Positions 10,216 to 42,219 of a DNA stretch of 64,000 nt are shown here, one piece after another (position 1 is the stretch's first letter; each line of letters opens with the position of its first letter). Below the pieces are notes generated by a model. The model was not told the DNA's origin, did not search any database, and saw only the letters and a list, made by a program, of their open reading frames with translations. The position numbers and the translations under genes are program-made. The DNA is from a virus, in IMG/VR virus record IMGVR_UViG_3300043436_002883, positions 1 to 64,000 of that record; one strand, 5' to 3'.

Positions 10216-10229
10216 CATAAGGAGAAACA

Positions 10230-10583: not shown

Positions 10584-10584
10584 T

Positions 10585-10659: not shown

Positions 10660-10755
10660 TTAAAAGTAGACAATCTAAAAATATTTTGATATAATAATAT
10701 ATAGATCGCTCAATGGAGGATCTATATTAATTTATTCGCTTGAAAGGGGAATAAT

Positions 10756-11181: not shown

Positions 11182-11193
11182 GGTATAATATAA

Positions 11194-11274
11194 ATCTGCA
11201 CCCCTTCATCGGGGGAGTCGCAGGTAGCGGGCCGTTACCCGCAGGATGGACCTGAGCAAGTCCTCAAACTGCTC
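11194..11274 (+). ncRNA. Candidate structured RNA or 5' leader: two hairpins plus an H-type pseudoknot
   Basis: GC-rich island after TATAAT (11184); stems ATCTGC/GCAGGT, CCCCT/GGGGG and GCGGG/CCCGC, then GGAC-CTGAGCAA-GTCC-TCAAAC-TGCTC. Confidence 0.55.
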
Positions 11275-11296
11275 TCTATTATTAGTTAGGGAAAAT

Positions 11297-12079
11297 ATGG
11301 ACCTGCATTGGATGTCTGTAAGAGATGATAGTGATTTAATTTCACTTAAACGGCTTTCTAATACTGTCAATGATGCAGGATATAAATCCGTTTTGCTTGT
11401 ATATCACTCCTTGCTCCCAGACTATATGATTAAGGTTGCCAATATTATGGACCCTAAGCATTCGTTTAAATATATGTTTGCAATTAGAACCTATGCTGTT
11501 AGCCCTGAACTTTGTGCAATGATGATGCATTCTTTTCACGAAATAGATAAAGACAGAGTTATGCTGAATGTTGCAGCTGGAGATATGAAAGAAGAAGAAG
11601 ATAGCGTAAACAATATGGTTTTTATATCTGATCAAATGCAAACTAAAGAGCAACGAGTTTTGTATACAACAGAGTGGATAGAAAAGTTTTTAAGGCACCC
11701 AATGTTAGTAAAAAAACCAGATATTGTTATTAGTGGTACATCTGACAAAACAATTGAGAATTCAGAAAAATATGCAGATATTCATTTAGCAATGCTATCA
11801 ACTTATAAAGATGGGTTTAAGGTAAAAACAAAAAGAAAGATGGCATCAACTATAGTTATAATACGTGATACAGATGAAGAGGCTAAGGCGGTAGCCGATC
11901 AAGAAAAAAATGACATGATGCGTAGGTCTATGGTGCATGGAACAGAAGAAACAGTTATACAAAAATTAAAACAACTAAAGCTTTTAGGTCTAACAGACAT
12001 ACTTGTGTCTGATAGCATGTGGGACAATCAGCTATATAGGCTGCATGAAATGGTAAAGAAAGTGCAAGGTGTTCTATAG
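11297..12079 (+). CDS. Luciferase-like (LLM) flavin-dependent oxidoreductase
   Basis: GYKSVLL, YMFAIRT..SP, RVMLNVAAG and GTEETVIQKL patterns; start moved to ATG 11297. Confidence 0.7.
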   Translation: MDLHWMSVRDDSDLISLKRLSNTVNDAGYKSVLLVYHSLLPDYMIKVANIMDPKHSFKYMFAIRTYAVSPELCAMMMHSFHEIDKDRVMLNVAAGDMKEEEDSVNNMVFISDQMQTKEQRVLYTTEWIEKFLRHPMLVKKPDIVISGTSDKTIENSEKYADIHLAMLSTYKDGFKVKTKRKMASTIVIIRDTDEEAKAVADQEKNDMMRRSMVHGTEETVIQKLKQLKLLGLTDILVSDSMWDNQLYRLHEMVKKVQGVL

Positions 12080-12267
12080 TGCCAGTATATGAATACAAAT
12101 GCAGTCAAGATGATGCACACGCAACACTTGCAGTAACACGCTCAATCTCAGAAGATGATCCAGGATACATCTGTGAAGAATGTGAGGCGGGAATGATTAG
12201 ACACTTCACCCCATTCGGTATACAGTTTAAGGGTAATGGCTTTTATAAAACAGATAATCCTAAATAG
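12079..12267 (+). CDS. FmdB-family zinc-ribbon protein
   Basis: MPVYEYKC...CEEC...FKGNGFYKTD. Confidence 0.85.
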   Translation: MPVYEYKCSQDDAHATLAVTRSISEDDPGYICEECEAGMIRHFTPFGIQFKGNGFYKTDNPK

Positions 12268-12324
12268 TTCAATGGTATAATTACTAAGTAAGCAAATATA
12301 TTGCATTACTTAGGAGATACCTAG

Positions 12325-14922
12325 TTGACTAGAAAGATTAAGTACTTTTTAACCAGCCTTTTTGTAATCGGCTGGCTTTTCCTTTTTAGTCCTAATTTTG
12401 CTAATGCTAATGAGCCTCCTGCTCCTGCGGAACAAGTTGTAGTAAGCCCTGCACAACAAGCAGTAAACACAGCAATTGCAACAGCAACAACAGAAGTAGC
12501 ACAGGCAGCGCAAGCCTCAGATACAGCAACAGTAACAATAGCCACAGCGGTCCAAGCAGTAACAGCATCTAATACAGCCGTAGCTGCAGCAAATACTGCG
12601 GTGACTGCAGCAACTACTGCGGTAGCGGAAGTGTCAAATGTATTACCAGCAGTAGAAACTGCAACAACAGTTGTCCAAACAATTACTTCAACAGTAGCGG
12701 CAGTCACACAAGCTGTAGCCGCAATACCAGTAACAGCCACAACCCAAACACCAGAGGTTGTAGCGGCGCAAACAGTAGTAACGCAAGCCGTTGCTACAAT
12801 AGATTCTGCAGTAGCCACGGTAATAGCAACAGCAACTCCATTAATGACGGAGACTCCAACCACGGTTGCACAAGTAGCCACAGCAATTGCAACAGAAGTT
12901 GCCCAATCAGAGACAGCCACAGTTTTAGTTCAATCAGCACAGACAGCAATAGATACGGCTACTGCAACAGTTGCTACAGCAACTACAGCGGTGGCAGCAG
13001 TAACACCTGCACGGACAGAGGCTCAAACACAGTTAACTCAAGCAAACGTAGCAATTAATAACGCCCAAGATGCAGTAAATGCACTTGCCGCAACCATTGG
13101 CACCACAACAAATGTTTTATCTGGTGTAGATGACGCTGGCGTCCGCATGAATCTACCATTTAATTTACAAATGGGTGGGGTTACATACAACAATGTTTAT
13201 GTTGGATCTAACGCAACAATAACTTTTGGAGTAAATGAAGGTGCAAATTACTACACTACGCCAAATGCTCCCTCTATTTCTATAGCTGGATACGACTGGA
13301 CTACTTGGAGTAATGGATCTGGAATCACATATTCAACAACCACAAACACCCTTAGCGTTGCTTGGGATCTTAGAGTTTATCCTTTACAAACAGCCGAGAC
13401 ACAAATGACTCAGGTTAGATTTAACGCAGATGTAAACCCATCAAATGGAGCATGGCAAGCCGATGTAAGTGTTACTGGCCCTATCCCAAATGGGGCTAGA
13501 TTCAACGTAAGAGAGACAACGGGCGGCGCTGTAACAGATATTAATAATACAAGCACTACTACAGGCTTTACTGGAACAATCAGTCAAGGCCCCGCATTTA
13601 CACCTACACCTGATCCAAGCAATGCATCAGTTCAGGCAGCAATAGAAACAGCTAATGCACAAATTGCTACATTAAACTCAGCGGTTACAACAATTGTTGC
13701 AGCAAATACAGCAAACACAAATACAGTTATTGCGCCAATTGCAGCAGTTTCACAAAATACAATTACATCATTAAATAATGCAAGCACAGATTTAACAAAT
13801 AAAGTAACAGCAATTGCAAATGTTTCAGTAGCTGTAGAAAAAGTAACCACTGCACCTACAATAGTAGCAGCAGCACAAACAGTAATTGATGCAGTTCCTG
13901 CACCCGCACCTACTCCTCCACCTGCGCCAGCCCCAGAACCTGTACAGCCTGAGCCAGTTGCTCCACCAGTTGTTGAGCCGCCAGTAGTTGTTCCTCCCGT
14001 TGTTGAGCCACCCGCAGAAGAGCCACCTGCAGAAGAGCCACCCGCAGAAGAGCCACCCGCAGAAGAGCCACCTGCAGAAGAGCCACCCGCAGAAGAGCCA
14101 CCTGCAGAAGAGCCACCCGCAGAAGAGCCACCTGCAGAAGAGCCACCTGCAGAAGAGCCACCTGCAGAAGAGCCCCCTGCAGAAGAGCCACCCGCAGAAG
14201 AGCCACCTGCAGAAGAGCCCCCTGCAGAAGAGCCACCCGCAGAAGAGCCACCCGCAGAAGAGCCACCCGCAGAAGAGCCAGAGGCGGGATCAGAAGAAGC
14301 AGTAGAAGAATCTGTTGATGATGCATTGTCTGATGGGAAAATAGACGAATCAGAAGCAGAAGATATTTTAAATGAATTAGCAAGTGATGGTGAAGTAACT
14401 GTAGAAGAAGTTCAGAACCTTGCAGATGCTTTATCTGAAGATGGAAAATTAACTAATGCAGAAAAGGAATTAGTTGCAGATGCCCTTGTAGAATCCCTTG
14501 AAGATGGAGGGTCTTTAACTAAAGAACAAATACAAGAAGCTGGAATTGAATATAAAGATTTACCACCTTCAACACCAGTAGATGTGAGAACAGATGAAAA
14601 CGGAAATTCTGTTGTAATTACTGCAGCGGTTGCAGCACAGGTAGAATTGCTTCAAGATACAGGAGCACTGATAGAAGAATTATTTACAAATCCAGCAGCA
14701 GCATTGGCTGCATTTGGAAGCATAGGCGCAGATATGTCTGACGAAGAAAGAGAAGAGGCAACAGATATGGTTGTTGCTACAGTAGTTGCAGCAGGTGCTG
14801 CAATTAACGCTGCAGCAGTTGCCACAGGGGGAGCCACAGGAAGTGGCACAGGGGGCGGAGGAAGTTCTGGTGGAGGCTCAGGAGCCAATTCACCAGGTTC
14901 ACGAGGAGGAAGAAAATGGTAA
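12325..14922 (+). CDS. Large secreted/surface protein with Ala/Thr-rich helices, a globular core and EEPPA repeats
   Basis: Signal peptide, low-complexity segments and a hydrophobic C-terminal segment. Confidence 0.75.
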   Translation: MTRKIKYFLTSLFVIGWLFLFSPNFANANEPPAPAEQVVVSPAQQAVNTAIATATTEVAQAAQASDTATVTIATAVQAVTASNTAVAAANTAVTAATTAVAEVSNVLPAVETATTVVQTITSTVAAVTQAVAAIPVTATTQTPEVVAAQTVVTQAVATIDSAVATVIATATPLMTETPTTVAQVATAIATEVAQSETATVLVQSAQTAIDTATATVATATTAVAAVTPARTEAQTQLTQANVAINNAQDAVNALAATIGTTTNVLSGVDDAGVRMNLPFNLQMGGVTYNNVYVGSNATITFGVNEGANYYTTPNAPSISIAGYDWTTWSNGSGITYSTTTNTLSVAWDLRVYPLQTAETQMTQVRFNADVNPSNGAWQADVSVTGPIPNGARFNVRETTGGAVTDINNTSTTTGFTGTISQGPAFTPTPDPSNASVQAAIETANAQIATLNSAVTTIVAANTANTNTVIAPIAAVSQNTITSLNNASTDLTNKVTAIANVSVAVEKVTTAPTIVAAAQTVIDAVPAPAPTPPPAPAPEPVQPEPVAPPVVEPPVVVPPVVEPPAEEPPAEEPPAEEPPAEEPPAEEPPAEEPPAEEPPAEEPPAEEPPAEEPPAEEPPAEEPPAEEPPAEEPPAEEPPAEEPPAEEPPAEEPEAGSEEAVEESVDDALSDGKIDESEAEDILNELASDGEVTVEEVQNLADALSEDGKLTNAEKELVADALVESLEDGGSLTKEQIQEAGIEYKDLPPSTPVDVRTDENGNSVVITAAVAAQVELLQDTGALIEELFTNPAAALAAFGSIGADMSDEEREEATDMVVATVVAAGAAINAAAVATGGATGSGTGGGGSSGGGSGANSPGSRGGRKW
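14005..14280 (+). repeat. 15-bp tandem repeat, about 18 copies, encoding EPPAE
   Basis: GAGCCACC(C/T)GCAGAA units. Confidence 0.97.
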
Positions 14923-17342: not shown

Positions 17343-17576
17343 GTGCTAGTTTTGACGCCTAAAGGAGTTGATGTCTTTATTAAAAGATTTAGCTCTAAAG
17401 ACAGACAGTCCTATTGGGACAACTATAATCTCATTATATGGAAAAGGAACCCTACTGGATTCTCTAATAAAAATGGATTATTTAAAAATAATTCTTGGGG
17501 AATTGCAGAAAACTTTCCTATAAATACAGACGGAACATGGAAGATGTCGGACAAATATGTCAAATATTTTAAATGA
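17343..17576 (+). CDS. Hypothetical protein
   Basis: RBS; overlaps whiB. Confidence 0.6.
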   Translation: MLVLTPKGVDVFIKRFSSKDRQSYWDNYNLIIWKRNPTGFSNKNGLFKNNSWGIAENFPINTDGTWKMSDKYVKYFK

Positions 17577-17868
17577 TCTAGGTGTAGAAGAGAACGATTT
17601 TAAGTGGTTTGATATTGCTGTATGTAGAGGTATGGATACAAATTTATTCTTTGATAAATATGAATCAGACCCAGTTATAGCGGCAAGCATTGATGAGGCC
17701 TGCTTAAGTTGTCCAGTTTCCAAAGACTGTTTTGAGTCAGGCTCCATAAACAATGATCACGGAGTATGGGGCGGAATCTATCTAAACTCTGGCGAGATAG
17801 ATAAGGTAAAAAATATTCACAAGACAAAAGACTTGTGGCAAAAAATTAGAACAAAAAATGGTATTTAA
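17557..17868 (+). CDS. whiB: WhiB-family Fe-S transcription factor
   Basis: Four Cys (AVC...ACLSCPVSKDC) and GVWGG turn. Confidence 0.92.
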   Translation: MSNILNDLGVEENDFKWFDIAVCRGMDTNLFFDKYESDPVIAASIDEACLSCPVSKDCFESGSINNDHGVWGGIYLNSGEIDKVKNIHKTKDLWQKIRTKNGI

Positions 17869-29960: not shown

Positions 29961-30236
29961 TCATACATCTCGTGCTCCAATCGCAAATGATAGTTGATAT
30001 GTTAGATTATATAGTTCTACTAGCATATCTAGGCGCCCTTCACATTCTGTGCGGACCATAGAATCCATTGCCTCTTCTGACAATGCCTCCTGTTCTAATG
30101 CGGTTGCTAGGTCTTGCTCAGCAATTAGCATTAGGTTCTTTAGTTCCCCGTGCATTATATCTAATCCACTAACACCTGCATTGACCATTCGTTGCAAGTG
30201 GGGCGGGAGCCCAATATCTTCTGCAGTCATATTCAT
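29961..30236 (-). CDS. Hypothetical protein
   Basis: AACGAAAGGG leader; promoter at 30261. Confidence 0.65.
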   Translation of the reverse strand: MNMTAEDIGLPPHLQRMVNAGVSGLDIMHGELKNLMLIAEQDLATALEQEALSEEAMDSMVRTECEGRLDMLVELYNLTYQLSFAIGARDV

Positions 30237-30762
30237 TAATATACCCTTTCGTTGTCATTCATTATATCAGTTGCCACTGACAATATATGCCTGGTATTCG
30301 CAATTTCTGCTTCTTTAACTCTATAGAAATGATGACCATTTACATAATCAATCTGTTCTAAGTCTTGTTCTAAACTAATTAGATGTATCTTTAGATACTC
30401 CATAAATCTAGATGATTTAGTCGGTGTGGTCAAAGTAACCCTCCGCCCATAAGCCCTGCATAAAACTAACAGCCATTTCTAAATCATTCCTTAGTTCTGT
30501 CTTATCCATTAAATCGGACGGGGTTCTAAGATAGAAAAGCTTAGCATCGTGTATAGCATTAATCATTCTATTTAGATCGGATTCAGTATAACCTAGCATA
30601 ATTCATACTCCAAATCCCAAGACACATCAGGCCAATTTAAATCAAATTTAGCACTCTCAACTTGGCCAAGGTCGTCAAGATGTAAGTTAATCTTTTCATT
30701 TGCCTCTTCTTCATTTCTAGCATAGACACTGCCTGCTAATTTGATTACAAAATTATAGTATT

Positions 30763-30978
30763 TCATAGTAAGTATTCATCTCCCTCAATATATCCGTAGT
30801 ATTCGTTGTATTGCTGCTTTAATTCATCTGAGGCATATTGCATAAATTGCCATTCGGCATAATCGCTGCCCTCATCTAAATTCTTATTGGACCAATCATC
30901 AAACAATTGCTCCGCTATTTCTTGTTGCATTGCACCTGTAATGTGCTCTGCTACCGTATCTATAAATTGTTCAGCCAT
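30763..30978 (-). CDS. Acidic hypothetical protein
   Basis: 17 D/E versus 2 K in 71 aa; GGAGG RBS. Confidence 0.65.
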   Translation of the reverse strand: MAEQFIDTVAEHITGAMQQEIAEQLFDDWSNKNLDEGSDYAEWQFMQYASDELKQQYNEYYGYIEGDEYLL

Positions 30979-31759
30979 TTATTGCCTCCTCCATTGTGTA
31001 TGTCTTCAAAGGTAATAATACCTTATGGGTCTGACATTCTGCCATAGCCTTTTCATCCTGCCAAGAACCCTCATTGCATTCTGAGCAGAATTCACCACAG
31101 TCATCTTCACAATAACTCATTGTGTCAAAAGACTGGCAAGCATAGCAACGGTTTTCATATTCTAATAGTTCTTTTACTTCTCCACGGACAATCTCATACT
31201 CTCCACCCCAGCCTGTTTCTTCTTCATACTCTAATGTGAGCAGGCAGTTAGGAACAAGATTACTTAGTTTAGTTAAGATAGTTACAGCAGGTGACCAAGC
31301 AGTTTCATACTTATATACAACCCAGTTGTCTTCACCCTCTGATTTATATTCAAGCAATTCTGTATTTGAATACTCTTCACCGTCACGAACTGCAACATCC
31401 CATTTAGTTCCCCAGTTAGAGTTATTCCACGAATACCAGTCCTTCTGAGTTTTAGCAAACTCAATAGACTTGCGGAACCAATCAGGGTCATTTGTATCTA
31501 TGCCACCACGAGAAGGCTGGCAGGCATATTCCTCATCAGTAATACCGTCATCCTTATATGAATGGATATTGAAGAATGCAAAGACAGGATTAGAATAAGT
31601 AACCTGTTGAATTTTGGTGGGGAAACCAGAAGAACTAATATCACCCATACCATAAGTCTCTTGTGCTAATGTAAAAGGCTTATTCAATCTATCTTTAATC
31701 ATATCTACCTCAGACTTAGGTCCTTGAATAGTTAATGTGTTATAACACCAGTTTGGCAT
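30971..31759 (-). CDS. DUF1281/YubB ferredoxin-like-domain protein
   Basis: MPNWCYNTL...WNNSNWGTKWD...YETAWSP; start moved to ATG 31759. Confidence 0.75.
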   Translation of the reverse strand: MPNWCYNTLTIQGPKSEVDMIKDRLNKPFTLAQETYGMGDISSSGFPTKIQQVTYSNPVFAFFNIHSYKDDGITDEEYACQPSRGGIDTNDPDWFRKSIEFAKTQKDWYSWNNSNWGTKWDVAVRDGEEYSNTELLEYKSEGEDNWVVYKYETAWSPAVTILTKLSNLVPNCLLTLEYEEETGWGGEYEIVRGEVKELLEYENRCYACQSFDTMSYCEDDCGEFCSECNEGSWQDEKAMAECQTHKVLLPLKTYTMEEAING

Positions 31760-31936
31760 TTTATATCCTTTCGTTGATATGTGATTATTATACATTGGAC
31801 CACTGACAAATGGAATAGCAAATGGGTGTGTTCCACACCACATTTTTGATCATTGTGGTCAACATCACAAAATTTCAGGGCATTTTAAATTGACCTCGTA
31901 AACAAATTATGATACCCTCTGCTTTTGCGGGCAAGT

Positions 31937-31963
31937 AAAAAACCCCAGCTTGCGCTGAGGTTT
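31937..31963 (-). terminator. Intrinsic terminator
   Basis: AAACCTCAGC-GCAA-GCTGGGGTTT-TTT. Confidence 0.8.
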
Positions 31964-32078
31964 AAGAAAGTAAAGGCCGCTAGGATCTACCAACGAAAGT
32001 AAAAAGTCCTGCATTGCTTAGCGACTTGGGGATCCCCTGGTAGCCGCACCTGTACTCATGAAGAAGGTCCCTGGACCT
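31937..32078 (-). ncRNA. Candidate sRNA (about 140 nt) antisense to the leaders of neighbouring genes
   Basis: Extended -10 TGGTATAAT at 32085-32093; structured body; intrinsic terminator at 31937-31963; contains CUUUCGUUGGU and CUUUCUU. Confidence 0.55.
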
Positions 32079-32085
32079 ACCTCAA

Positions 32086-32451
32086 TTATACCATAACTAG
32101 TTGACTGTATTTACTACAGAATTTATCTAAAGATAAACTAAACACTTCTGTAGTTAGGTCCTCTTCAAACAAAGTAAACGTTTGAGTGGACCAATCAATT
32201 ACAGGAATCTTGTGCTCATTATCTAGAATTCTATTAACACTTAAGCCCCAGCCTGTCTCGGACTTCCAGTCTTCGTTAATCATTTGTGATACACAAATAC
32301 GTGTAGCATATGATTCATCCGTCCACCTTGGCCGTGCTGCCTCGACAGCATTGGCTAAGCGCTCCAACATACCGTGGCCTGCCCAGTGTCCGTATAGAAA
32401 GATTGTATCCCCCTTGGAATCTTTAAATCCAAAGTTTGCTCTGTCTCCCAT
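32086..32451 (-). CDS. Hypothetical phage protein
   Basis: MGDRANF...LYGHWAG...RWTDESYATRI. Confidence 0.7.
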   Translation of the reverse strand: MGDRANFGFKDSKGDTIFLYGHWAGHGMLERLANAVEAARPRWTDESYATRICVSQMINEDWKSETGWGLSVNRILDNEHKIPVIDWSTQTFTLFEEDLTTEVFSLSLDKFCSKYSQLVMV

Positions 32452-32452
32452 T

Positions 32453-32662
32453 TTATTCCGCCGTTTCTAGTTGAGGTACTGCTTCTTCTATTTTGTTTAA
32501 TTCTATCACTTCGTATGAGACCTTGTCAAGGCCTGCTTTGTTTTTATTGTAGTGGTGGCCACAAAAGAACAGTTCACCATCTACTAGTTTAATTAAATAC
32601 ATAGCCTGAGCTGTGCCACATTGGTCGCAGCCGATCCATCTTGTTAGGTCTTCAGTTGTCAT
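32453..32662 (-). CDS. Small zinc-finger protein
   Basis: CDQC...FCGHH. Confidence 0.7.
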   Translation of the reverse strand: MTTEDLTRWIGCDQCGTAQAMYLIKLVDGELFFCGHHYNKNKAGLDKVSYEVIELNKIEEAVPQLETAE

Positions 32663-33016
32663 AGTTTCCCGCCTTCTATCATTTCACAAAGACGGTCAAG
32701 AATCCAAGTATCGATATCATTAATATCAATCTCTGATAGTCTTTCCATCATTTCTTCACGAGCAAATTTATACCCGTCATCAAAACCATCTTTGTAATCT
32801 GACATTATTTCTCCTTGTATCCTGTCGCTTCTCTGTCTGACCAGTAACTCTCAGTTAGATTATACTTGTCACGAATGCGACTTACTTTCTCAATACTACC
32901 AGTTCCAATGTTGAATGTCAACGGTGACATTGCTTCGGGGTCGAGCCCTGTGATTTGTGCATCCCAATAGGCCATCTCCATAGATAGCCTATCGGGAGCA
33001 GTCAACTCAAAATACA

Positions 33017-33676
33017 TTATGCTTCTCTAACGTGGCAAACTTCGGTGTCATCAATTTGAATGTTACCGTTATTTGATTCAGCATAAAGAGCATCTGTAAC
33101 TTCTGAATCAAGGTCTAATTCATAGTCGGAGTCAAGAATGTTGTATGTATATGTTCCGCTAACTTCAAGAGTTGCGGTGAATAGAACTTCTCTTACGAGT
33201 TCAATTGAAAGCGCTTCAGCAATTGCACGAAGTGTATCTTTATCCTCTGAGTCTTCATATGCCTCAGTGATAATATCTTTGACTTTGTTAATCTTGTCTT
33301 CAAATACTCCGACACGCTTCTGTGATTGACGTGCATTGTGTAGGTCCCACTCAATTGATGTAACCTTATCAGTTGCATATTCCGCATCTGAGTATCCCTT
33401 GATTACTTTATAGGTAACCAAAAGATTAGGATTATATGTATCGGGAATTGTTGTAGTTGTTGGTTCTTCCATTTTTTCCTCTTTCGTTTGGGTTGTTGGA
33501 GCAATTGTAGCATTGACCACTGACAATAAGACTGGCTTACGGCCACACGGGCAAGTGATTTCCATCACACCCGACGGGAATCCAAAACCGTCAGATGATG
33601 TTAGTTCTATTAGTACATCACAATTGTCTGGGTCACAGGCAAATGTATATTTAGTTGATACTAGTTCGTTGGTCAT
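33017..33676 (-). CDS. Hypothetical protein with two in-frame starts (33676 leaderless; 33472 with RBS)
   Basis: Each start has its own TGTCAG-N10-TACAAT promoter. Confidence 0.6.
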   Translation of the reverse strand: MTNELVSTKYTFACDPDNCDVLIELTSSDGFGFPSGVMEITCPCGRKPVLLSVVNATIAPTTQTKEEKMEEPTTTTIPDTYNPNLLVTYKVIKGYSDAEYATDKVTSIEWDLHNARQSQKRVGVFEDKINKVKDIITEAYEDSEDKDTLRAIAEALSIELVREVLFTATLEVSGTYTYNILDSDYELDLDSEVTDALYAESNNGNIQIDDTEVCHVREA

Positions 33677-33792
33677 GGAAGAATTGTACCAGGGCCCACT
33701 GACATATACAAGCTTTTCCAGGGAATTTTTTATCATTCCCGTATGATCAATATCACACCCGCAATACTGCGGGCATTGTCGACAAATCTATT

Positions 33793-33869
33793 TGGCGACC
33801 CCTACGGGACTTGAACCCGTGACCTCTACCGTGACAGGGTAGCGCTCTAACCAACTGAGCTAAGAGATC
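33793..33869 (-). tRNA. tRNA-Asp(GTC)
   Basis: Acceptor GATCTCT/AGGGGTC; CTACC-CTGTCAC-GGTAG; GGTTCAAGTCC; encoded CCA. Confidence 0.93.
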
Positions 33870-33908
33870 TTGCAGGCAGTTTTAAATCTTGCCTAGGATT
33901 TTTATTAT

Positions 33909-34916
33909 TTAGAAAGTTGCAACCATTCGATACAACTTATTTTTTTCTGCGGTAAGAATTGGGTCAAAACCTGATGCACCCGCCATAAGTGTTTCAGAAT
34001 TGCCACGACCTGAACGATAGTAATCAAGGCGCTCAGTTAGTGCATTGAACGCACCCCACTTAGTTCCCTTGATTGTAGCGTTAGTTGGTGAGTTATGATA
34101 AAGGTCATCAAGTAGAACAACCTTATTCTCCCACTTAGTTAGCGCAACTTTAGCAGCATCTTTATCTGGCTTAGGATAAATTGTCTGAATCAACTTAGAG
34201 AATTCAGCATCAGTAATTGCCTGAGAGTAAAGTGCTTTTGCTTGAACTTCGAATTCATCAAAGTATCCAAGAGCAAGCCCAAGAGTTTCACGAGCAACTT
34301 GAATGCGACCTTCAACAGATTGCGTGTGGCGAATCTTGAAAGATTGCTTAGCATTCTTCATTGCAAGGTTTAGCGTGTTTTGGCATACAACACGAACAGG
34401 AGTAACGGCTGCTTGAACAGCAACAGAACCATCGTGTGATGTCCATACGATAAGATAAAGTTTAGTTTCATCATTAGCGCCTTGTGGGTCAAGAACCATT
34501 GTGCGGGGAATATCTACAGTTCCGAACACAACTTTGCCCTTCTTCAATGAGCCAGCAGATTCCCAACGGCAATCGGCATTAGCATCGTGAATTGCATCAG
34601 CGAATGCAAATAGTTCTTCATTCTGAACTGGCTTGTAACGCTTACCAACAGTTGCAAGAACATCAGTTCCGCCATTGAATGGATTTGTGCGAACAACTAG
34701 AGATGAATCTGAAACATCATTCCAAGATTCGTCAATGTGATTTGTGATTGGAGATAAGCGAACATTCCAATTTGCTAACTTTGCTTCGCTAAGCATTGAG
34801 GCAGTTGTAACTTCCTCATCTTTTGCAAAGATACGATTTGCTAGGTTGTGCCAAGCAGGTGCGCCACGGAGAGCGAAAGCAACTTCGCCATTTTCCATTT
34901 CGAGATTATGAGCCAT
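33909..34916 (-). CDS. DUF932 / TIGR03299-family phage-plasmid protein
   Basis: MAHNLE...PAWH..., YKPVQN, ESAGSL, SHDGS and TPVRVVCQNTL motifs. Confidence 0.88.
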   Translation of the reverse strand: MAHNLEMENGEVAFALRGAPAWHNLANRIFAKDEEVTTASMLSEAKLANWNVRLSPITNHIDESWNDVSDSSLVVRTNPFNGGTDVLATVGKRYKPVQNEELFAFADAIHDANADCRWESAGSLKKGKVVFGTVDIPRTMVLDPQGANDETKLYLIVWTSHDGSVAVQAAVTPVRVVCQNTLNLAMKNAKQSFKIRHTQSVEGRIQVARETLGLALGYFDEFEVQAKALYSQAITDAEFSKLIQTIYPKPDKDAAKVALTKWENKVVLLDDLYHNSPTNATIKGTKWGAFNALTERLDYYRSGRGNSETLMAGASGFDPILTAEKNKLYRMVATF

Positions 34917-35432
34917 ATTTATTTCCTTTCGGTTGGTTGATTAGTTTATTATAACAGGTGGCACTGACATTGTATAGAGTTAGTTACAATATGTCCGAAT
35001 TGATCCGTGTGAGTAATCTCACAAATTTCCAGGGCTTTTCCACAGGAAGCCGTAAGCCTGTGGATAACCCCGCAGCTTTGGGGGCATTGTCGACAAATAG
35101 ATAGGGCGGGATTTTAAATTGATCCCGCCCCAGCTTTTAATTTGTTTGGAATTTATTAGTTATACTTTCATCAAGGAACATTGCTGTAACCTTTTTCTTT
35201 TTTACATTGTCATACACGTAAGCATTTACTCTTCCGCTAAACTTACGCAAATTAGAAAAAACTAATTCAGTTAGGTATTCTCTATCAACACCTTGCTCTG
35301 AATAAATAGTTACATCATTTGCTTTGTTTGCGTCATAGATTTCTACACGATAACGATTTTTCATTTTATTCTTTCTTTAGTAGGGATAAGAATTATAACA
35401 TTGGGGCTAGGTTCTGTCTAGCCCCCATAAGA

Positions 35433-35615
35433 TTATGCGCCGATTTTTACCATAGCCCAACGCAAACCATTTTCTGTATTCAATCCAAGTTTAGTTAGAG
35501 TTGGACGAATAGAAACGATTTCCGTGATAGTGCCAGTAATTCCTGATTTGCCAGTTGTGAATACATCGCCCTTGCGATAGAAGCGACCCTTAGCGGTATC
35601 TAGAATTGGTGACAT
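35433..35615 (-). CDS. Small beta-rich protein (paralog of 36263..36436)
   Basis: GDVFTTGKSGITGTITEI...TENGLRW. Confidence 0.7.
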   Translation of the reverse strand: MSPILDTAKGRFYRKGDVFTTGKSGITGTITEIVSIRPTLTKLGLNTENGLRWAMVKIGA

Positions 35616-35708
35616 TTTATTTCCTTTCGTTAGTTGGTTGGTTGAGCAGTTTAGCAACTTGCTCAGGTTGTTAGGGTTCAGGACTTTAGGTTGCCCCCCT
35701 AAGTTTAG

Positions 35709-36125
35709 TTAGAGATACTTAGCAATCTGCTTCATTGTGGAAGCATTTACTGTTTCCTCATCTGTCATTTTGAGAATTGTGAGAGCATTTGTGATGTCCT
35801 CTTTGATTTCACGATACTGATGTGTATGAACTACCTCAAAATCCTTTTCAGGTTCTTTAGGAAAAGTTCCCTCTTTAGTGATAATGTCAAAATCAACATT
35901 GAGAGTGTTGTTCCATTGGCGATAGTTTGTGCGAAGGTTCTCAGCCTTTGAGAAGTTAGCAATAGCCCACTTGCCTACTTCCTTTTTCCAAGCCTCATAA
36001 GCCTTAGTGTGCTTTGCTTCATTTGCTGTTTGGTCTGCGTAGTCCTTTTCCAATTTAGCAAGGCGAGTTTCTAGTGCCTTGATTACTTTGGTCGTTGCTA
36101 CCTTTACTGTGATTTGTCTGCTCAT
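35709..36125 (-). CDS. Hypothetical protein
   Basis: 138 aa ORF; promoter at 36161; CCAACGAAAGG leader. Confidence 0.75.
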   Translation of the reverse strand: MSRQITVKVATTKVIKALETRLAKLEKDYADQTANEAKHTKAYEAWKKEVGKWAIANFSKAENLRTNYRQWNNTLNVDFDIITKEGTFPKEPEKDFEVVHTHQYREIKEDITNALTILKMTDEETVNASTMKQIAKYL

Positions 36126-36262
36126 TTATTTATTGCCTTTCGTTGGTTGGTTGTTTGAGTAGTATAACATAGGGGTCTGACATTTACCCCGAAGGGTGAG
36201 AGTTCTTACTTAGGACATTGGGCGAGAACACTCTCTAAACTGCCCCTGTTTCCTTTATTTAG

Positions 36263-36436
36263 TTATGCTAGACTATCGGCAAGAACTGTTGTCCAGCGTT
36301 CTCCGTTGTCTGTTTCCAGACGAACTCTCACCGAGCCAGATGAGTTAGGAATAATCTCTTTGATTACGCCTGTTTCTTTAGACTTCAGGGTAGTGAATAA
36401 ATCACCGACCTGATAGACTTTGTTATCTATTGTCAT
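36263..36436 (-). CDS. Small beta-rich protein (57 aa, not in ORF track)
   Basis: GDLFTTLKSKETGVIKEI...TDNGERW; promoter at 36463. Confidence 0.7.
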   Translation of the reverse strand: MTIDNKVYQVGDLFTTLKSKETGVIKEIIPNSSGSVRVRLETDNGERWTTVLADSLA

Positions 36437-36552
36437 TTTGCTTCCTTTCTTGTTAGTGTCCTATTATAGCAAAGGGGTCTGACATTTTCTACCCCAATCT
36501 CATTATGCGAGATACCAAGCGTGTGAGATAACTCACACGCCTAGTTTTGATC

Positions 36553-36834
36553 TCAGTATTCGCTTTCAGGTAGCCAAGCGTCTAAGTGGTGTTGTTCAAT
36601 AATAGCGGAGGCAGGTGCAAACTTTTCTCCACGATACAATACGCCTTCAGGCATTTCGATTAGTTTATTATAGTCCTCGTCATAGTATGCATCGATAGCA
36701 TCTATGCAAGGTTGCACCATAGAAAGTGGAACGGGTGGGTAATGATTACCTTGTAGGTGATAACCGATAGCGGTTTCTAAATCTAAATCGAATAAATCAT
36801 TATCCGCTAATTCTGTTGCAAAGTTACTTCCCAT
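36553..36834 (-). CDS. Hypothetical protein
   Basis: HLQGNHYPPVP...HHLDAW; AAGGAAGG RBS. Confidence 0.7.
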   Translation of the reverse strand: MGSNFATELADNDLFDLDLETAIGYHLQGNHYPPVPLSMVQPCIDAIDAYYDEDYNKLIEMPEGVLYRGEKFAPASAIIEQHHLDAWLPESEY

Positions 36835-37345
36835 TATTAGTTACCTTCCTTGATAGTTACTTCAGCCCAAGTGTTATTTTCATTTGCAATTTGCAATACC
36901 TTAGCCTCAGCAAGTGCGTGTAGTGTTGCACCCTTGCACATCGTTAGTAAATCTGTTTCAGTTAGTTTTAGTAATGCAGGTAATAGGTTAGCAGGTATTT
37001 TATCAAGGTCAATAATAGCCTCGAATACTATGGAGTGTGGAACTTTTATTTGATTAGACATTTGTTACCTTTCGTTGTTGGAATAAGAGTATTTTAGCAT
37101 AGGCCACTGACATTACCTAATCCATTATGGGCGTGTCGCAGCTTTTGTGATAATACTCACATTTTTGGGGGGTTGTGGATAACTGCCGTAAACCTGTGGA
37201 TAAGCCGCCACCTTTGCGGGCCAGCTTGATCTTGTCAAGTCGACACGCCGTTAGCCTTTAAGTACGGCCCATATAGCAATTGGAATCGGAAGTACAATAG
37301 CGCTAATAAATATAATTGCAAGAATTGATCCGAGAGTATCTGCCA

Positions 37346-38065
37346 TTATTTTTTACTCGCAGAAAATCTAATATCCGCTTTACCGTAGACACATAAGCCA
37401 CAAGATACACAAGCGGACCCAGCATTGCTAATAAGCGGAATGCTTTTCATATTCTCTGGACACTTAGCACCAGGCTTGCCAGTCAATTCTTTCATTGTGC
37501 TCTCAGTTACGGCGAATGTCTTTCCTAGATAAGCAAGGCGGATACCAGAATTAACTTTCAAATCATGGCCCGTTTCTTTATTCTCATCATCGGTAGAATA
37601 ATAAAGAGATAGATTAGATACATCCTTAAGAATAAGCGCTGCAGACTTTACTCGTGTATAAACCCAAAATTGAACATCGGGGTGGTTAGAAATAATAGTC
37701 TTCCAGGCATAGGTATAAGTATCATTGAAGAAATCTCCGTCCCAGTGGATACGGAATAACTTAGGAGCGTCTTTCTTTTCACAATCTGCAACAAATTCTA
37801 CAATCATCTCATCTAATAGAATAAGCATAGTATCGGTATCTGCATTGCGTAGCAATTCCCAGTTGTGCAGAAGATTAGCCTTTACTCCCTTGAAGAGCTT
37901 TTCGAGTTTTCCTGCGTAGCAAACACTCTCACAAATACTAGTGGCACCAGGGCATGAGTAAGCCTTTCCAGCGGGGAGACCGAACGTGTTAGCAATTGCG
38001 GCTTGCTTTCCATTTTTTGTGACAAGGTTAGCCACCTTTCTATCATTAGAACGTTTTAGTTTCAT
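37346..38065 (-). CDS. Gp88-like Cys-cluster (radical-SAM-related) protein
   Basis: SCPGATSICESVCYA, FRIHWDGDF and FWVYTR; start moved to ATG 38065, just after a promoter. Confidence 0.7.
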   Translation of the reverse strand: MKLKRSNDRKVANLVTKNGKQAAIANTFGLPAGKAYSCPGATSICESVCYAGKLEKLFKGVKANLLHNWELLRNADTDTMLILLDEMIVEFVADCEKKDAPKLFRIHWDGDFFNDTYTYAWKTIISNHPDVQFWVYTRVKSAALILKDVSNLSLYYSTDDENKETGHDLKVNSGIRLAYLGKTFAVTESTMKELTGKPGAKCPENMKSIPLISNAGSACVSCGLCVYGKADIRFSASKK

Positions 38066-38096
38066 AGGGGTAATTATAGCGGTTAGATCTGACATA

Positions 38097-38306
38097 TTAG
38101 TAATCCTCATCCATTCCGTGTCCTGCAGACGCAAGAGCGTCGGAATCGGACCAGCCCGTTAGTTCATAGAATTCCATTTCTTCAGAATCATAGCATTCTG
38201 CACACATATAGTCATCACCGAATACTTCATAATCAGACTCAGAATCAAAAGTCATAGTTGTGCCACAAATTTCAGAGTTTAGGCAAGCGACGGTAAATAG
38301 TTCCAT
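38097..38306 (-). CDS. Very acidic small Cys-containing protein
   Basis: 19 D/E and no K/R in 69 aa; promoter at 38337. Confidence 0.7.
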   Translation of the reverse strand: MELFTVACLNSEICGTTMTFDSESDYEVFGDDYMCAECYDSEEMEFYELTGWSDSDALASAGHGMDEDY

Positions 38307-38752
38307 AATGGACCTCTTTCGTTAGTAGATATTGGAATTATAGCAGGTTAGACTGACATTTGCTAATCGACACGCAAATTTCCAGGGTGTTTTAGATCAC
38401 ACCCTTAACGACACGCCCGACCCCGTAGCTATGTGGGCGCTTTGTCGACAAATTAATTTTATTGATCGAATTTATTTTTATGTTTGATCTTGCGTGTGTA
38501 TTTTTTTTTATTGCGAACAGGTTGCGCCGCATTACTGCGACGCAATTCCTGAATGCGTTTTACTTTATCTTGAAGTGAAGTTAGGAACATTATACCCACT
38601 CGCTTCGTGAAATCGTTTTACATCAAATCGCTCATTGTCAATCGCAAACATTTCCGCAAAATCATTTACGATTTTAGAAAATACAGCGGGGTGAGTTTTA
38701 TTGCTCGCATACTTTAGAATTTCTGCGGTTGCGATGTAATCTTTTCGTGTCA

Positions 38753-38956
38753 TCATTTTACTACGACCTCTCCTGAACGATAAAATAATTTAGTATACAT
38801 TTTGCCAGTTGGCGTTGATAGATTTACAGTTGAGTATTCGTTAGCCATTCCCCAATCGGTAAAACGGAAAAAGTTTTCCCACGCACCAAATTCGTTTTCG
38901 TATTCGGCAGACCAATGCGGAGCGTTGCTATCATAAGCGCAAGTTAGTTTATACAT
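38753..38956 (-). CDS. Hypothetical protein
   Basis: Coupled to neighbours; overlaps 38565..38756. Confidence 0.6.
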   Translation of the reverse strand: MYKLTCAYDSNAPHWSAEYENEFGAWENFFRFTDWGMANEYSTVNLSTPTGKMYTKLFYRSGEVVVK

Positions 38957-39941
38957 TATTCATTCACCCAATCTACAGTTAGTTCATCAGAAATTTCATC
39001 TACGCAAGCGCAAGGCTCTACATCATAATTATTTTCATTTCCAAAGAATAAAAATCCTGCGCCACCGCATTCATCACATTCAGCAGAAATAATTTCTATG
39101 TATTCTTTTACTTTAGCCATTTAGGTTTTCCCTTTCGTTTGTTTGAGTTGTAATTGTAGCAGATAGCACTGACAAGGCTTGCGCCTTGCTTGCTTCACGT
39201 TGTGCGATAACGTGCTTCTTGAATTCGTCTAAGTTCATTCGAACGCTCCTTCTTCTAGTAATCCTAATTCGATGTTGAATAATTCATCTGGAGTGGCTTC
39301 GGCTAAATCAACCCAGCCCGCACCATCTTCATTCATTCTGAAAATTTCGATGTATCCCATTATTATTCACCAACCTTTACTGCGATTGTTGCGAATTTAT
39401 TTCGCAGACCGCCCGTGCGAATTTCGATTAGATACGCTTCGGTTTTTTCGCCGTAGTAAATTTCAGGGCGAGCCTCAGCAGAAACGATTTCGCCTGAAAA
39501 GTGGCGAGAGTTTGAGCGATAGTTTTTTCCTACAAGTAGGCTTTCGATTGTGTAGAGTTTAGTAGCCATTAGTGGCACCTTCTTTCGTTGTTGTTATAGT
39601 AGAGATTATACACGAACGGACTGACATTTTCCAATTTGGCAAGGGTTTGTCTCATTATTTGGAGCGTGGGCTTTGTGATAAGCATCACACAAGTTATGTG
39701 ATAAGCATCACACAAAATGTCCGATTTGTCTGTCAAGTCGACACGCCGTAGAATCCAGGGAATTTTATAACGACTTCATAACGACACGCCCGACGCCGCA
39801 CCCTTGTGGGCGCAGCTGTCAATTTGTCAAGTCGACACGCCGTTAGTTATTCAAAATCTTCAAATATTTTTTCTAGTTGAAGAATTTGCTCATCGGTAAG
39901 ATGATCTAATTCAATTGCGTGTTCAAATCCATAAAATTCCA

Positions 39942-40136
39942 TTATTCGTTTTCCATTTCTGCTAAATAATCTTCGTGTTCAACTAGGCCAATCGCAAATG
40001 CTACTGGGTCGCAACATTCTAGAATTTCGGCGGGAGTAAAAGTAGAGTAACCAATTTTTACAGTAGGATAAACATCATTTAGTAAGTCAATAAAACTTTC
40101 TTTGATTTCTAAATCTTTTTCTAATTGTGATTTCAT
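39942..40136 (-). CDS. Acidic hypothetical protein
   Basis: AAAGGAG RBS. Confidence 0.65.
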   Translation of the reverse strand: MKSQLEKDLEIKESFIDLLNDVYPTVKIGYSTFTPAEILECCDPVAFAIGLVEHEDYLAEMENE

Positions 40137-40934
40137 TTATATTCTCCTTTTGAGATAAGTTCGTCTAGCATTTTTGCTAAATCGGGGTGAATGCCAATTG
40201 GGGCATCTTTCCAATAATTTTCTAATTCTAAGTTAGTAACGAAATCTCTCATTAGATACACGCTACGCATTCGCATTTAGGATTTTCACGAATAAGAACT
40301 TTTAGCAAAACCTTGCGTTGATAAACGCTAAGACCATAAGTGCTTTTAGCACCACCATTATTCCAATCGTGGAGAATACGATTTTCAAGAGCACCAGATA
40401 TTCCTAGTGCTAAGCCGATATTTGTTTTTTCTAGTGTAGTCATTTGAGACCACCTTTCTTTTTGTTTGTATGTCGCTAGTATAGCAGGGGGGTCTGACAT
40501 TTTGACCCCTTTTTCGGGCGTGTCGGAAAACTATTTTTGTGATAAACCTCACAAATTCTAGGGTGTTTATCCACAGACCCTTAATCACCCTGTGGATAAC
40601 TCCCTCAAGTACTTGCGGGCGGATCAGCTTTTGTCAAGCCGACACGCCGTTAGGTTAGTGTGATTTATCCCACTCTCTAAAGTCTGCGACGATCTCCCGC
40701 CACATTAGGCGCATCATTAGCAGGGTAGGTATTCCGATACCTATTTGGACGGCGGTAGTTAGTAGGCGATTAGTAGTCATTACTTATTCTTCTTTCTCTT
40801 GTAAATCTTATAGGCGGTTATTACTAGGGCGGTGATAATGATAGTGTGCCAAGGTAGATAGATAGCCCCTAAGAAACTATCTAATTCTAATCCGTAGTCG
40901 CTTGTTATGTATAACTCTAATCCGTCCGCTATCA

Positions 40935-41102
40935 TTAGTCATTCCAATCTAGTGTTAGTGATTTGTGTAATTCATCATCATCAAAATCATCAGCGCCAAA
41001 ATCTACGCCTTCTGCTAGTGCCTTGTTATAGGCTTCTTCTTCATCTATGTAGACATAAGCATCTGCTACATCTGCCTGAATAGTATCCCATTTAGTCATC
41101 AT
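40935..41102 (-). CDS. Very acidic small protein (55 aa, not in ORF track)
   Basis: MMTKWDTIQADVADAYVYIDEEEAYNKALAEGVDFGADDFDDDELHKSLTLDWND; AGAAAGG RBS. Confidence 0.65.
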   Translation of the reverse strand: MMTKWDTIQADVADAYVYIDEEEAYNKALAEGVDFGADDFDDDELHKSLTLDWND

Positions 41103-41292
41103 TACATTGACACCTTTCTCATATGTGCCACTACATTAGTGGAAACCTTTTGTAAGTCTGCTACGACTTTATTCATTTCATCTGCGCTATTAGCGGTAAA
41201 GTCAACGCCTAGTAATTGTGCGCCGTCCCATAGTGAGTATGTTATTGTCATTTTATTTTCTATCCTTTGTTAGTAGTTGTTAGTTAGTTGTT

Positions 41293-41344
41293 GAGCGGTT
41301 ATTTGCTAGGCTCACCTTTCGGATTATTTGCTAGGCTCACGCTC
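41293..41344 (-). repeat. 17-nt direct repeat forming a pseudo-symmetric 5' leader element
   Basis: GTGAGCCTAGCAAATAA twice (41299-41315 and 41324-41340). Confidence 0.8.
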
Positions 41345-41515
41345 TAATTCTTATTTAGTTGTTATGCTGTAATTGTAGCCGATAGGGCTGACATTTACAA
41401 GCGACACGCCGTTAGGCGTTAGTGTGATTATGCTCACACTTGGACTCTATCTCGTGTCCATATTCCTCTACGAGTTCCTCGTAGATTTCATCCATATAGT
41501 CTAGATAATCGTTCA

Positions 41516-41683
41516 TTAGTTATTCTCCTTTCCAAGAGTGTTGTGTGTAGCGTAGTTACCGCCACACATTACGCAGAGTGTCCAAGCGGTTACTCTACCG
41601 CACCCTGCTGAGCAAGATACATAGCCTAGACGCTGAGCGTCATTCTGATAGTCGTTACGACTTTCCCAAATTCTATTTGTCAT
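41516..41683 (-). CDS. Small zinc-finger protein (55 aa, not in ORF track)
   Basis: CSAGC...CVMC; AAGAAAGG RBS; promoter at 41737. Confidence 0.65.
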   Translation of the reverse strand: MTNRIWESRNDYQNDAQRLGYVSCSAGCGRVTAWTLCVMCGGNYATHNTLGKENN

Positions 41684-42219
41684 TTTATTGACCTTTCTTT
41701 ATTAAGGTTAACTCCTTGTTAACTTCTTATACTATAAGCCTAACAGGGGGGACTGACATTTAGGGGGGTTACTGATGAGTATTCTCAAACTATTTTTGTG
41801 AGTTACACCACACTCACGCTCAAAATTATAGGGTTATGGGCGCACTATCGGACAAATCGGACATTAAAAATAGTGTGTATCATACATATTAAAAATATAT
41901 TAACATTTTCTCAAAAGTGACTTTGATCTATTGACTTACGAAAATATCAAATGTTATACTTGGAAAGGTTTCGGGGGGTTACACTAAGACTCAATATACC
42001 AAGTAATGCTTGGATTAGAATCTAGTAAAGCTCTCCCCTATCTTTCCAAAAAGATTTTTTAAATTTGGGGGGTAGGGGGGGTTTGCTAAAATCTAATTCC
42101 CAAGTATCCACTATACAATAAATGATAAAGATAAACAATATAGAAAAAATATTTTATTAACATTATGTAAAATCTTAAATCCTAGTCGACTGATAATTAT
42201 ACTGCTATATAATTAAGCT

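Follow-up and report, generated by a model that had tools for sequence, protein, structure and literature searches.

An uncultured 109-kb phage, which we identify as a lytic actinophage, carries a one-strand array of 16 sites of the form TGTCAG-N10-TANNNT in front of its small genes. We judge it probable, short of certain, that these sites are real promoters of the PafBC-dependent (RecA-NDp) class that are read by the PafBC of the host. The small-gene block is thus probably plugged into the host DNA-damage switch, for which there are no bench data. A PafBC-type reading had been proposed in a first-pass annotation of this DNA, and every sequence-level prediction that could be checked was borne out. 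PafBC binding and occupancy, dependence on PafBC, induction by damage or infection, and the early timing of the block remain inferences.

To count the motif we scanned the window, meaning the whole 64,000-nt stretch of DNA that was analysed, for exact matches. There were 18, every one of them on the minus strand, whereas 100 dinucleotide shuffles led us to expect 0.80 (sd 0.97, maximum 5); the full 109,282-bp genome holds 19 matches, 19/19 on the minus strand and none on the plus strand. Sixteen of the window matches fall between 30261 and 41758. They comprise the 15 sites that the first-pass annotation had listed, every coordinate of which was correct, and a further one at 31015 that it had overlooked, so that its total was one short. 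The minus-strand orientation and exact 10-nt spacer that it described hold for all 16. Its statement that the motif is absent elsewhere in the window was slightly off: matches also occur at 8102 and 50022, on the minus strand amid plus-strand genes, but neither has an extended -10, and their number is no more than chance predicts. Its counts of 11 listed sites with an extended -10 TGn and seven reading TGTCAGTG were accurate. Spacers differ from copy to copy, as it had also reported (749 distinct sequence contexts across 80 relatives), and the block promoters are therefore not recent duplications.

All 16 sites lie in front of ORFs (Table 1). From the -10 hexamer to the start codon the distance is 24-36 nt at 11 sites, with a GAAAGG-type ribosome-binding site, and 53 nt at site 41737. 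Two sites, 38073 and 33683, have an in-frame leaderless ATG 6-7 nt past the -10, which lends indirect support, and no more, to the transcription start 6-8 nt downstream of the hexamer that is predicted for this class. At two sites the distance is ~115-120 nt: 41372, and 33683 if one counts to the first of its starts that has a ribosome-binding site. Directly upstream of six or seven of the 16 sites is a weak -35-like hexamer (at least 4/6 matches).

Table 1. PafBC-type promoter sites and the gene block behind them, in window coordinates.
Feature	Position	Strand	Remarks
PafBC-type promoter, TGTCAGTCCC subclass	41737..41758	-	ATG 41683, 55-aa ORF
PafBC-type promoter without extended -10	41372..41393	-	120-nt leader with two GAGCCTAGCAAA repeats; ATG 41251
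PafBC-type promoter, TGTCAGACCCC subclass	40478..40499	-	ATG 40443; subclass also in host genomes
PafBC-type promoter	39605..39626	-	ATG 39569
PafBC-type promoter, TGTCAGTG	39153..39174	-	ATG 39120
PafBC-type promoter	38337..38358	-	ATG 38306
PafBC-type promoter of GP88-family gene	38073..38094	-	leaderless in-frame ATG 38065, 7 nt past -10; Pfam GP88 domain starts at this ATG
PafBC-type promoter, TGTCAGTGGC	37091..37112	-	ATG 37061
PafBC-type promoter, TGTCAGACCCC	36463..36484	-	ATG 36436
PafBC-type promoter, TGTCAGACCCC	36161..36182	-	ATG 36125, 138-aa ORF
PafBC-type promoter of DUF932 gene and downstream tRNA-Asp	34948..34969	-	DUF932 gene 33909-34916; tRNA-Asp 33793-33869
PafBC-type promoter, TGTCAGTGGG	33683..33704	-	leaderless in-frame ATG 33676, 6 nt past -10; 219-aa ORF
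PafBC-type promoter nested in 219-aa ORF of 33676	33504..33525	-	ATG 33472, which would start an in-frame shorter 151-aa product
PafBC-type promoter, TGTCAGTGGT	31787..31808	-	ATG 31759, 262-aa DUF1281_C-like protein
16th PafBC-type site, TGTCAGACCCATAAGGTATTAT (TGTCAGACCC, -10 TATTAT)	31015..31036	-	within 3' end of upstream gene; ATG 30978, 36 nt downstream
PafBC-type promoter, TGTCAGTGGC	30261..30282	-	ATG 30236
Leftward small-gene block	29961..41683	-	~35 ORFs behind the 16 promoters, including DUF932, GP88 and DUF1281_C-like proteins

Streptomyces BE phages carry a small-gene block in their terminal repeat that the block described here matches in position and orientation. The genes of the present block probably serve host takeover or anti-defence. 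Because the phage encodes a WhiB gene and shares with Streptomyces BE phages its terminase (64% identity), RNR, DUF932 protein and gene order, its host, as judged from these genes, is an actinobacterium, the species of which has not been identified. No integrase gene was detected in the phage genome.

PafBC-dependent promoters follow the consensus tGTCgg(N10)tA(N3)T, in which the GTC triplet is read by PafB R46/R50 (PMC8635444). Compared with this motif, the phage sites fit, with GTC invariant and no -35 consensus. Conservation among relatives agrees. All 80 of 80 close relatives carry the motif on the gene strand, at 8-17 copies per genome, and of 591 TGTCAG/-10 pairs, 579 are separated by 10 nt. 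In a profile of the 749 contexts the TGTCAG hexamer is fully conserved, whereas positions of the -35 hexamer carry at most 0.17 bits; likewise, TGTCAGTG and CTGTTATA do not vary across 35 distinct orthologous upstream regions that were aligned, but the -35 zone does. When sites in relatives were anchored solely on the extended -10, the hexamer read TGTCAG (367), TGTCGG (32), AGTCAA (21) or AGTCGA (8). This variation is a purine at position 5 with GTC kept, in agreement with the PafBC code. An extended -10 TGn together with a near-consensus TATAAT is found at ~80% of sites.

The arrays are not confined to close relatives. Contigs without nucleotide similarity to this phage have one-strand arrays of 9-25 copies, mostly TGTCAGTGG(T/C), and one divergent phage contig mixes TGTCGG and TGTCAG. 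With one gene, 289 related IMG/VR stretches were recovered; the phage family carrying the arrays is large and abundant, and its members are lake phages.

Both extended phage subclasses, TGTCAGTGGC and TGTCAGACCC, are also present at DNA-repair genes in actinobacterial chromosomes, among them those of streamlined 1.3-1.5 Mb genomes that have retained a PafB homologue. Upstream of recA, a TGTCAGTGGC-type promoter followed by a LexA box was found in all five of five complete 1.3-1.5 Mb Actinomycetia genomes, and phage site 34948 is identical at 19 of 22 bases to the recA promoter of a 1.4-Mb actinobacterial genome. The pattern TGTCAGWCCC-N6-TANNNT has 53 matches in 101 Actinomycetia genomes compared with none for the reversed control, and lies upstream of RmuC, RadA, DnaX, NrdR and DUF222/HNH genes, most of which are leaderless. 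In 1.2-1.5 Mb genomes the bare 22-nt pattern does not outnumber its reversed control, which implies a small regulon there. Lineages that could supply the host commonly have PafB: a homologue is encoded by 17 of 20 small Actinomycetia genomes (1.0-1.5 Mb), and an Aquiluna MAG has a pafB-pafC tandem whose PafB matches PDB 6SJ9 (E 7e-30). The actual phage host has not been identified, and the presence of PafBC in it is inferred from the class.

Could the sites be plain extended -10 promoters, used by the housekeeping sigma factor alone, with TGTCAG bound as an operator by some other protein (such as a phage repressor that turns the block off later) or serving as a family-specific element? We regard this as unlikely, although it survives better than the other alternatives. 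The TGn present at ~80% of sites along with a near-consensus -10 is in its favour; such a combination can act without an upstream element, so PafBC may be dispensable. In cultured Streptomyces relatives the homologous block is served by canonical -35/-10 promoters, and only 6/16, 5/13 and 7/15 of those in the terminal repeats (~40%) bear TGTC at the corresponding position. There TGTC precedes Y rather than RG (TGTCYY) and hence does not fit TGTCRG, so the element may have a role specific to the phage family. TGTC/GACA-containing elements (GACACG, CGTGTC) also recur upstream of the promoters. However, the TGTCAG element is asymmetric, which typical dimeric operators are not, and plain extended -10 promoters leave unexplained the missing -35 information, the A/G choice at hexamer position 5 and two 10-nt subclasses identical to chromosomal DNA-damage promoters.

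Alternatively, TGTCAG might be read with the same geometry by an activator that the phage encodes or brings in its virion and whose fold is not recognised; it would be a functional analogue of T4 MotA/AsiA that copies the PafBC site. Most proteins of this phage belong to no known family, and canonical promoters on the same strand (46333, 44912 and elsewhere) could express such a factor first. The first-pass annotation had suggested looking for WYL/HTH activators in the phage; no WYL, PafB/C-like, HTH_11 or sigma-70 region 2 gene was detected in the 109-kb genome, in a search that did not cover the MotA/AsiA families. That an unrelated protein should share the 10-nt specificity of PafBC, its tolerance of R and its spacing would be an improbable coincidence, and we give this alternative little credence. 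Since the phage has no detectable candidate gene of these kinds, the sites are most likely read by host PafBC. It is very improbable that the sites act mainly as a sink titrating PafBC-RNAP off host repair or defence genes, with small-gene transcription secondary: at least 16 high-quality sites per genome copy, multiplied through replication, and an influence of PafBC on mycobacteriophage resistance, reported in work cited by PMC12848934, would suit a sink, but all sites lie on the coding strand, spaced from a ribosome-binding site and start codon as promoters are, which a sink would not need.

If the sites are read by host PafBC, host RNA polymerase with the housekeeping sigma factor would recognise the -10 hexamer, while ssDNA-loaded PafBC would insert itself between the DNA and sigma region 4, where it would read the GTC within TGTCAG (positions -28 to -23) and so substitute for the -35 box ('sigma adaptation'). 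ssDNA in the cell would then switch on or strongly boost the ~35-gene block. Possible triggers would be linear phage DNA that is resected or nicked as it enters, attack by host-defence nucleases, phage replication or prior DNA damage. Since TGn and a near-consensus -10 are present at most sites, these probably fire to some extent even without PafBC, which would act as an amplifier. PafBC is activated by ssDNA (PMC11804915) and requires it; whether any is present in the opening minutes of infection is not known. CRP-like and DnaA boxes lie at fixed offsets upstream within the same promoter cassettes, showing that regulators other than PafBC are also involved. The actinobacterial LexA box TCGAAC-N4-GTTCGA, present beside host recA promoters, has no match in the 109-kb genome.

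We can offer a more far-reaching proposal only tentatively, and doubt that it holds in full. The ssDNA alarm of the host, which is constitutively present, would be the immediate-early switch: resected or cut entering DNA would load PafBC, and the 16 promoters before anti-defence and takeover genes would fire with no phage protein needed, so that attack by host defences triggers counter-defence. The CRP-like and DnaA boxes would provide a multi-input reading of host state, and the TGTC remnant would be a trait ancestral to Stanwilliamsviridae-like phages.

We found no paper describing phage arrays of PafBC-type promoters, and PafBC sigma adaptation is so far known solely as a chromosomal DNA-damage response. 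If our reading is true, this would be the first case that we could find of a virus borrowing a host activator of the WYL type to run its own programme, and a host-supplied counterpart to T4 MotA/AsiA. The phage arrays would offer a concrete explanation for the influence of PafBC on phage susceptibility, and they would supply hundreds of natural PafBC-site variants with which the specificity of PafBC can be studied. The reading also gives testable predictions in tractable systems.

Among known systems, the phage sites resemble the PafBC RecA-NDp promoters of Mycobacterium, Streptomyces and other Actinobacteria (PMC8635444), with TGTCRG, an invariant GTC at -28 to -23, a gap of exactly 10 nt before TANNNT and no -35; both also have TGTCAGTGGC and TGTCAGACCC as extended forms, and some leaderless downstream genes. 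Unlike chromosomal PafBC promoters, those of the phage form a one-strand array of 16 and precede not repair genes but small genes whose function is unknown, have a -10 near the TATAAT consensus, TGn at ~80% and CRP-like/DnaA boxes upstream, and depend on PafBC only by inference. LexA/SOS-controlled phage genes (lambdoid induction, CTX phage, GIL01) likewise tie phage transcription to a host DNA-damage signal. There the control is RecA-relieved repression, whereas this phage has an activator site, no LexA boxes and no detected integrase. In T4 middle promoters (MotA box at -30 plus AsiA, 'sigma appropriation'), an element near -30 similarly replaces the -35 and a factor bridges sigma region 4 and DNA; T4, however, supplies two proteins of its own and remodels sigma, whereas here there is a site for a host activator and no detectable phage factor. 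The terminal-repeat takeover modules of SPO1, T5 and Streptomyces BE (Stanwilliamsviridae) phages are also ~10-12 kb of one-strand small genes with a strong promoter for each unit. Their promoters are canonical -35/-10, by contrast, and Streptomyces relatives keep just a TGTC remnant at -26 in ~40% of them. In phage NootNoot, as in this phage, the block adjoins glycosyltransferase, RNR, lysin and portal genes.

Pattern search of the 64-kb window recovered 18 matches to TGTCAG-N10-TANNNT, all 18 on the minus strand, where 0.80 were expected and dinucleotide shuffles gave a maximum of 5; the whole 109,282-bp genome contains 19, again all on the minus strand. The first-pass annotation had listed 15 sites in the leftward small-gene block and none outside it. 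All 15 coordinates were correct, as were its counts of sites with an extended -10 TGn (11 of 15) and with TGTCAGTG (7 of 15), but a further copy in the block had been overlooked. Confinement to the block held for these 16 copies and failed for two others, which lie among plus-strand genes and whose number is at chance level.

On the coding strand each site resembles aaaTGTCAG-N10-TAtAAT. At 11 sites a leader of 24-36 nt with a cAACGAAAGG-type ribosome-binding site precedes the ATG. The leader measures 53 nt at site 41737 and is unusually long, at about 120 nt, at site 41372, where it holds two direct copies of GAGCCTAGCAAA. At sites 38073 and 33683 an in-frame ATG lies 6-7 nt past the -10; the GP88 domain begins at the former, and a 219-aa ORF opens at the latter. 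Going by sequence, messages from these two sites would be leaderless. Site 33504 is nested inside the 219-aa ORF and would give a shorter, in-frame 151-aa product. Canonical -35/-10 promoters on the same strand indicate that the phage uses two promoter classes. The intrinsic-terminator pattern was found 20 times against 11.4 expected, and transcription units were not clearly delimited by any of these.

Scanning IMG/VR with the DUF932 protein of the block returned 289 related stretches, and the best 80 of these (protein identity 90-96%) carried 8-17 motif copies each, on the gene strand with a single exception. The profile built from 749 distinct contexts in relatives reads aaaTGTCAG[T/A][G/C][C/G]Cnn[C/A]TGcTAtAAT, with TGn in 80% and no more than 0.17 bits at the -35 hexamer positions. 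When promoters were anchored solely on the extended -10, without requiring the hexamer, and the six bases 16 nt upstream were read (n=652), TGTCAG was found 367 times, TGTCGG 32, AGTCAA 21 and AGTCGA 8. The spacer from TGTCAG to the -10 hexamer was 10 nt in 579 of 591 cases. Alignment of 35 distinct orthologues of the region preceding the DUF932 gene showed TGTCAGTG and CTGTTATA to be invariant and the -35 stretch to be poorly conserved.

A second scan, with TGTCAGTGGCNNNTGNTANNNT, identified contigs without nucleotide similarity to the phage whose 9-25 copies lie on one strand and are mostly TGTCAGTGG(T/C); on one divergent contig TGTCGG and TGTCAG are mixed. Because arrays are kept on such contigs, the motif is, as judged from these comparisons, selected in its own right and not inherited with the surrounding sequence. 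Contigs G302-G306 (loci L208, L137, L179, L171, L161) hold 10-25 copies, often at a contig end. Array contigs of 51-68 kb have CheckV completeness of 55-64%, which suggests genomes of about 105-110 kb. No terminase was found on the divergent array contigs G302-G307, which are 10-64% complete fragments, and their kinship to the phage remains open.

The in vivo PafBC consensus is tGTCgg(N10)tA(N3)T, with the hexamer at -28 to -23 and no -35; PafB residues R46 and R50 contact the two guanines of the GTC triplet base-specifically, and this triplet hardly varies among actinobacteria (PMC8635444). Variation among the phage sites, with A or G at position 5 and GTC kept, fits this published readout, consistent with the initial assignment of the motif to the PafBC type. 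Upstream of recA, five of five complete Actinomycetia genomes of 1.3-1.5 Mb have TGTCAGTGGC... or TGTCGGTG..., spaced by 10 nt, and then a LexA box; one recA promoter reads TGTCAGTGGCACCTGTTACCTT, compared with TGTCAGTGCCACCTGTTATAAT at phage site 34948.

For the second phage subclass, TGTCAG[A/T]CCC, a search of 101 Actinomycetia genomes gave 53 hits, and its reversed control gave 0. Twelve of these sites were followed to their downstream genes, among which are those for RmuC, RadA, DnaX, NrdR and three DUF222/HNH proteins, and at many of the twelve the start codon follows the -10 by 6-7 nt. Genomes G030 and G036, both flagged as unpublished, account for two of the hits and for one downstream gene (glycosyltransferase, L131); the count excluding them is 51 versus 0. 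In a 301-genome pattern tally, most larger Actinomycetia genomes carried the motif 5-20 fold over control. For Actinomycetia genomes of 1.2-1.5 Mb the genome-wide count equalled the control and was uninformative, and recA upstream regions were examined instead. The tally includes eight unpublished-flagged genomes (G007, G015, G024, G030, G032, G036, G043, G263); no conclusion rests on these alone.

The phage genome is rated 100% complete by CheckV and has a GC content of about 38%. A low-GC, non-actinobacterial host, first assumed from this value, was dropped on the evidence of a WhiB gene and actinophage homologies. The terminase and class II ribonucleotide reductase are 64% and 66% identical, respectively, to those of Streptomyces BE-cluster phages (Stanwilliamsviridae), and the 335-aa DUF932 protein of the block shows 50% identity to a gene in the BE terminal repeat. 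With the BE phage NootNoot the phage shares a gene order of leftward small-gene block followed by rightward glycosyltransferase, reductase, lysin and portal genes, the NootNoot counterpart of the block being its ~10-kb terminal repeat. Megablast of the block against GenBank phages gave no match. A 1004-aa virion protein has 45% identity to cyanophage proteins, which fits an aquatic origin, and the phage looks lytic, given that its genome has no tyrosine or serine integrase. One scan of genome contigs with the phage WhiB returned a single match, to an Aquiluna MAG contig (58% identity), too weak a basis for naming the host. This match (L092, 46860-51108) sits within tightly packed small ORFs on a 57-kb contig, possibly a prophage or a phage contig binned in error.

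An Aquiluna MAG has an FKBP-pafB-pafC arrangement. In the PDB, this PafB matches M. smegmatis PafB (7P5X) and the Arthrobacter PafBC structure (6SJ9, E 7e-30). NCBIfam left both PafB and PafC unnamed, and the identification comes from PDB matches and gene order. Of 20 Actinomycetia genomes of 1.0-1.5 Mb, 17 had a PafB homologue. In the absence of binding data, the simplest reading is that host PafBC reads the phage promoters. Host RNAP-SigA would bind the -10 and ssDNA-loaded PafBC would provide the upstream contact at -26 (PMC8635444; PMC11804915). The block would then fire on single-stranded DNA arising from linear-genome entry or resection, nuclease attack or replication, or in damaged cells.

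The phage sites may also fire without PafBC, since in most of them an extended -10 is combined with a near-perfect hexamer; six or seven carry a weak -35-like hexamer. Unlike those of the phage block, homologous promoters in the cultured Streptomyces relatives are canonical TTGnnn-17-TAnnnT. Only a minority have TGTC in the -26 place, and there it is followed by Y and not RG: 6 of 16 promoters in Coruscant, 5 of 13 in Mandalore and 7 of 15 in NootNoot, far above chance for a fixed triplet. This TGTC may be what is left of the same device, or an early form of it, or it could point to a family-specific factor. It was seen only by promoter-anchored inspection: exact TGTCRG-N10-TANNNT is not enriched in NootNoot, and a loose NGTC-N12-TANNNT count showed no genome-wide enrichment in six cultured relatives. 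A phage-encoded activator, raised at the outset, found no support, as the phage genome yielded no WYL domain, HTH_11 or sigma-70 region 2 and nothing better than E 0.3 by tblastn against PafB/PafC.

Terminal-repeat promoters of the Streptomyces relatives (Coruscant 1-13000, Mandalore 52000-66000, NootNoot 1-11000) share a ctACATCTA-like element, which is conserved and lies immediately 5' of the -35, and TGTCSGG...CCGGACA palindromes lie upstream of NootNoot promoters.

The promoter cassettes of the phage contain further elements. All seven perfect CRP/GlxR-type palindromes, TGTGA-N6-TCACA, in the 109-kb genome (0.1 expected) fall in the block; in relatives, 311 of 855 promoter contexts contain such palindromes, whose offsets from the TGTCAG start are fixed (-65, -55, -50, -45). 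Consensus DnaA boxes are mostly in intergenic cassettes, 70-100 nt upstream of promoters; some pair with an inverted copy as hairpins, and the box is invariant in orthologous alignments. The presence of both in the same cassettes implies that other inputs exist. Several phage promoters are preceded, at a distance of 9-25 nt, by GACACG/CGTGTC elements of unknown function, and 13 of the 21 copies in the genome fall between 37.1 and 41.5 kb. The PafBC-type recA promoters of small Actinomycetia genomes are flanked by similar elements, GACAC(G)/CGTGTC (loci L116-L120).

Coordinates of promoter-associated and other features of the phage
Feature	Position	Strand
Overlooked motif copy in block	31015-31036	-
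Motif matches outside block	8102, 50022	-
Leader of site 41372	41251-41372	-
ATG after site 38073	38065	
ATG after site 33683	33676	
Nested promoters	33017-33704	
ATG after site 33504	33472	
Canonical -35/-10 promoters	46333, 44912, 35420, 32529, 29121, 28887	-
CRP/GlxR-type palindromes, 16 bp	35008, 36522, 37146, 39674, 39697, 40538, 41423	
Eight consensus DnaA boxes, TTATCCACA (1.2 expected)	28122, 28134, 35067, 37182, 37203, 40567, 40599, 46685	
Promoter-proximal GACACG/CGTGTC	37137-41458	
tRNA-Asp gene	33793-33869	-
Carbamoyltransferase gene	8671-10164	+
tRNA-Met, tRNA-Asn, tRNA-Arg genes	10142-10659	
WhiB gene	17557-17868	

The block encodes DUF932, GP88 and DUF1281_C-like proteins and many tiny ORFs. 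Within it a tRNA-Asp gene lies directly 3' of the DUF932 gene, and the two are probably transcribed together from promoter 34948. Elsewhere, tRNA-Met, tRNA-Asn and tRNA-Arg genes come after a carbamoyltransferase gene (Pfam N- and C-terminal domains, E 1e-41 to 1e-54).

A full-text literature search (PafBC with phage or mycobacteriophage, RecA-NDp, and sigma adaptation with bacteriophage) found no description of phage-borne PafBC-type promoters. A 2025 paper in ACS Infect Dis reportedly links PafBC to mycobacteriophage resistance. On sequence grounds we assign the phage sites to an already described class of host promoters, here encountered for the first time as arrays that would drive a block of phage genes. 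By position and content, this block resembles the terminal-repeat host-takeover modules of SPO1, T5 and the BE phages.
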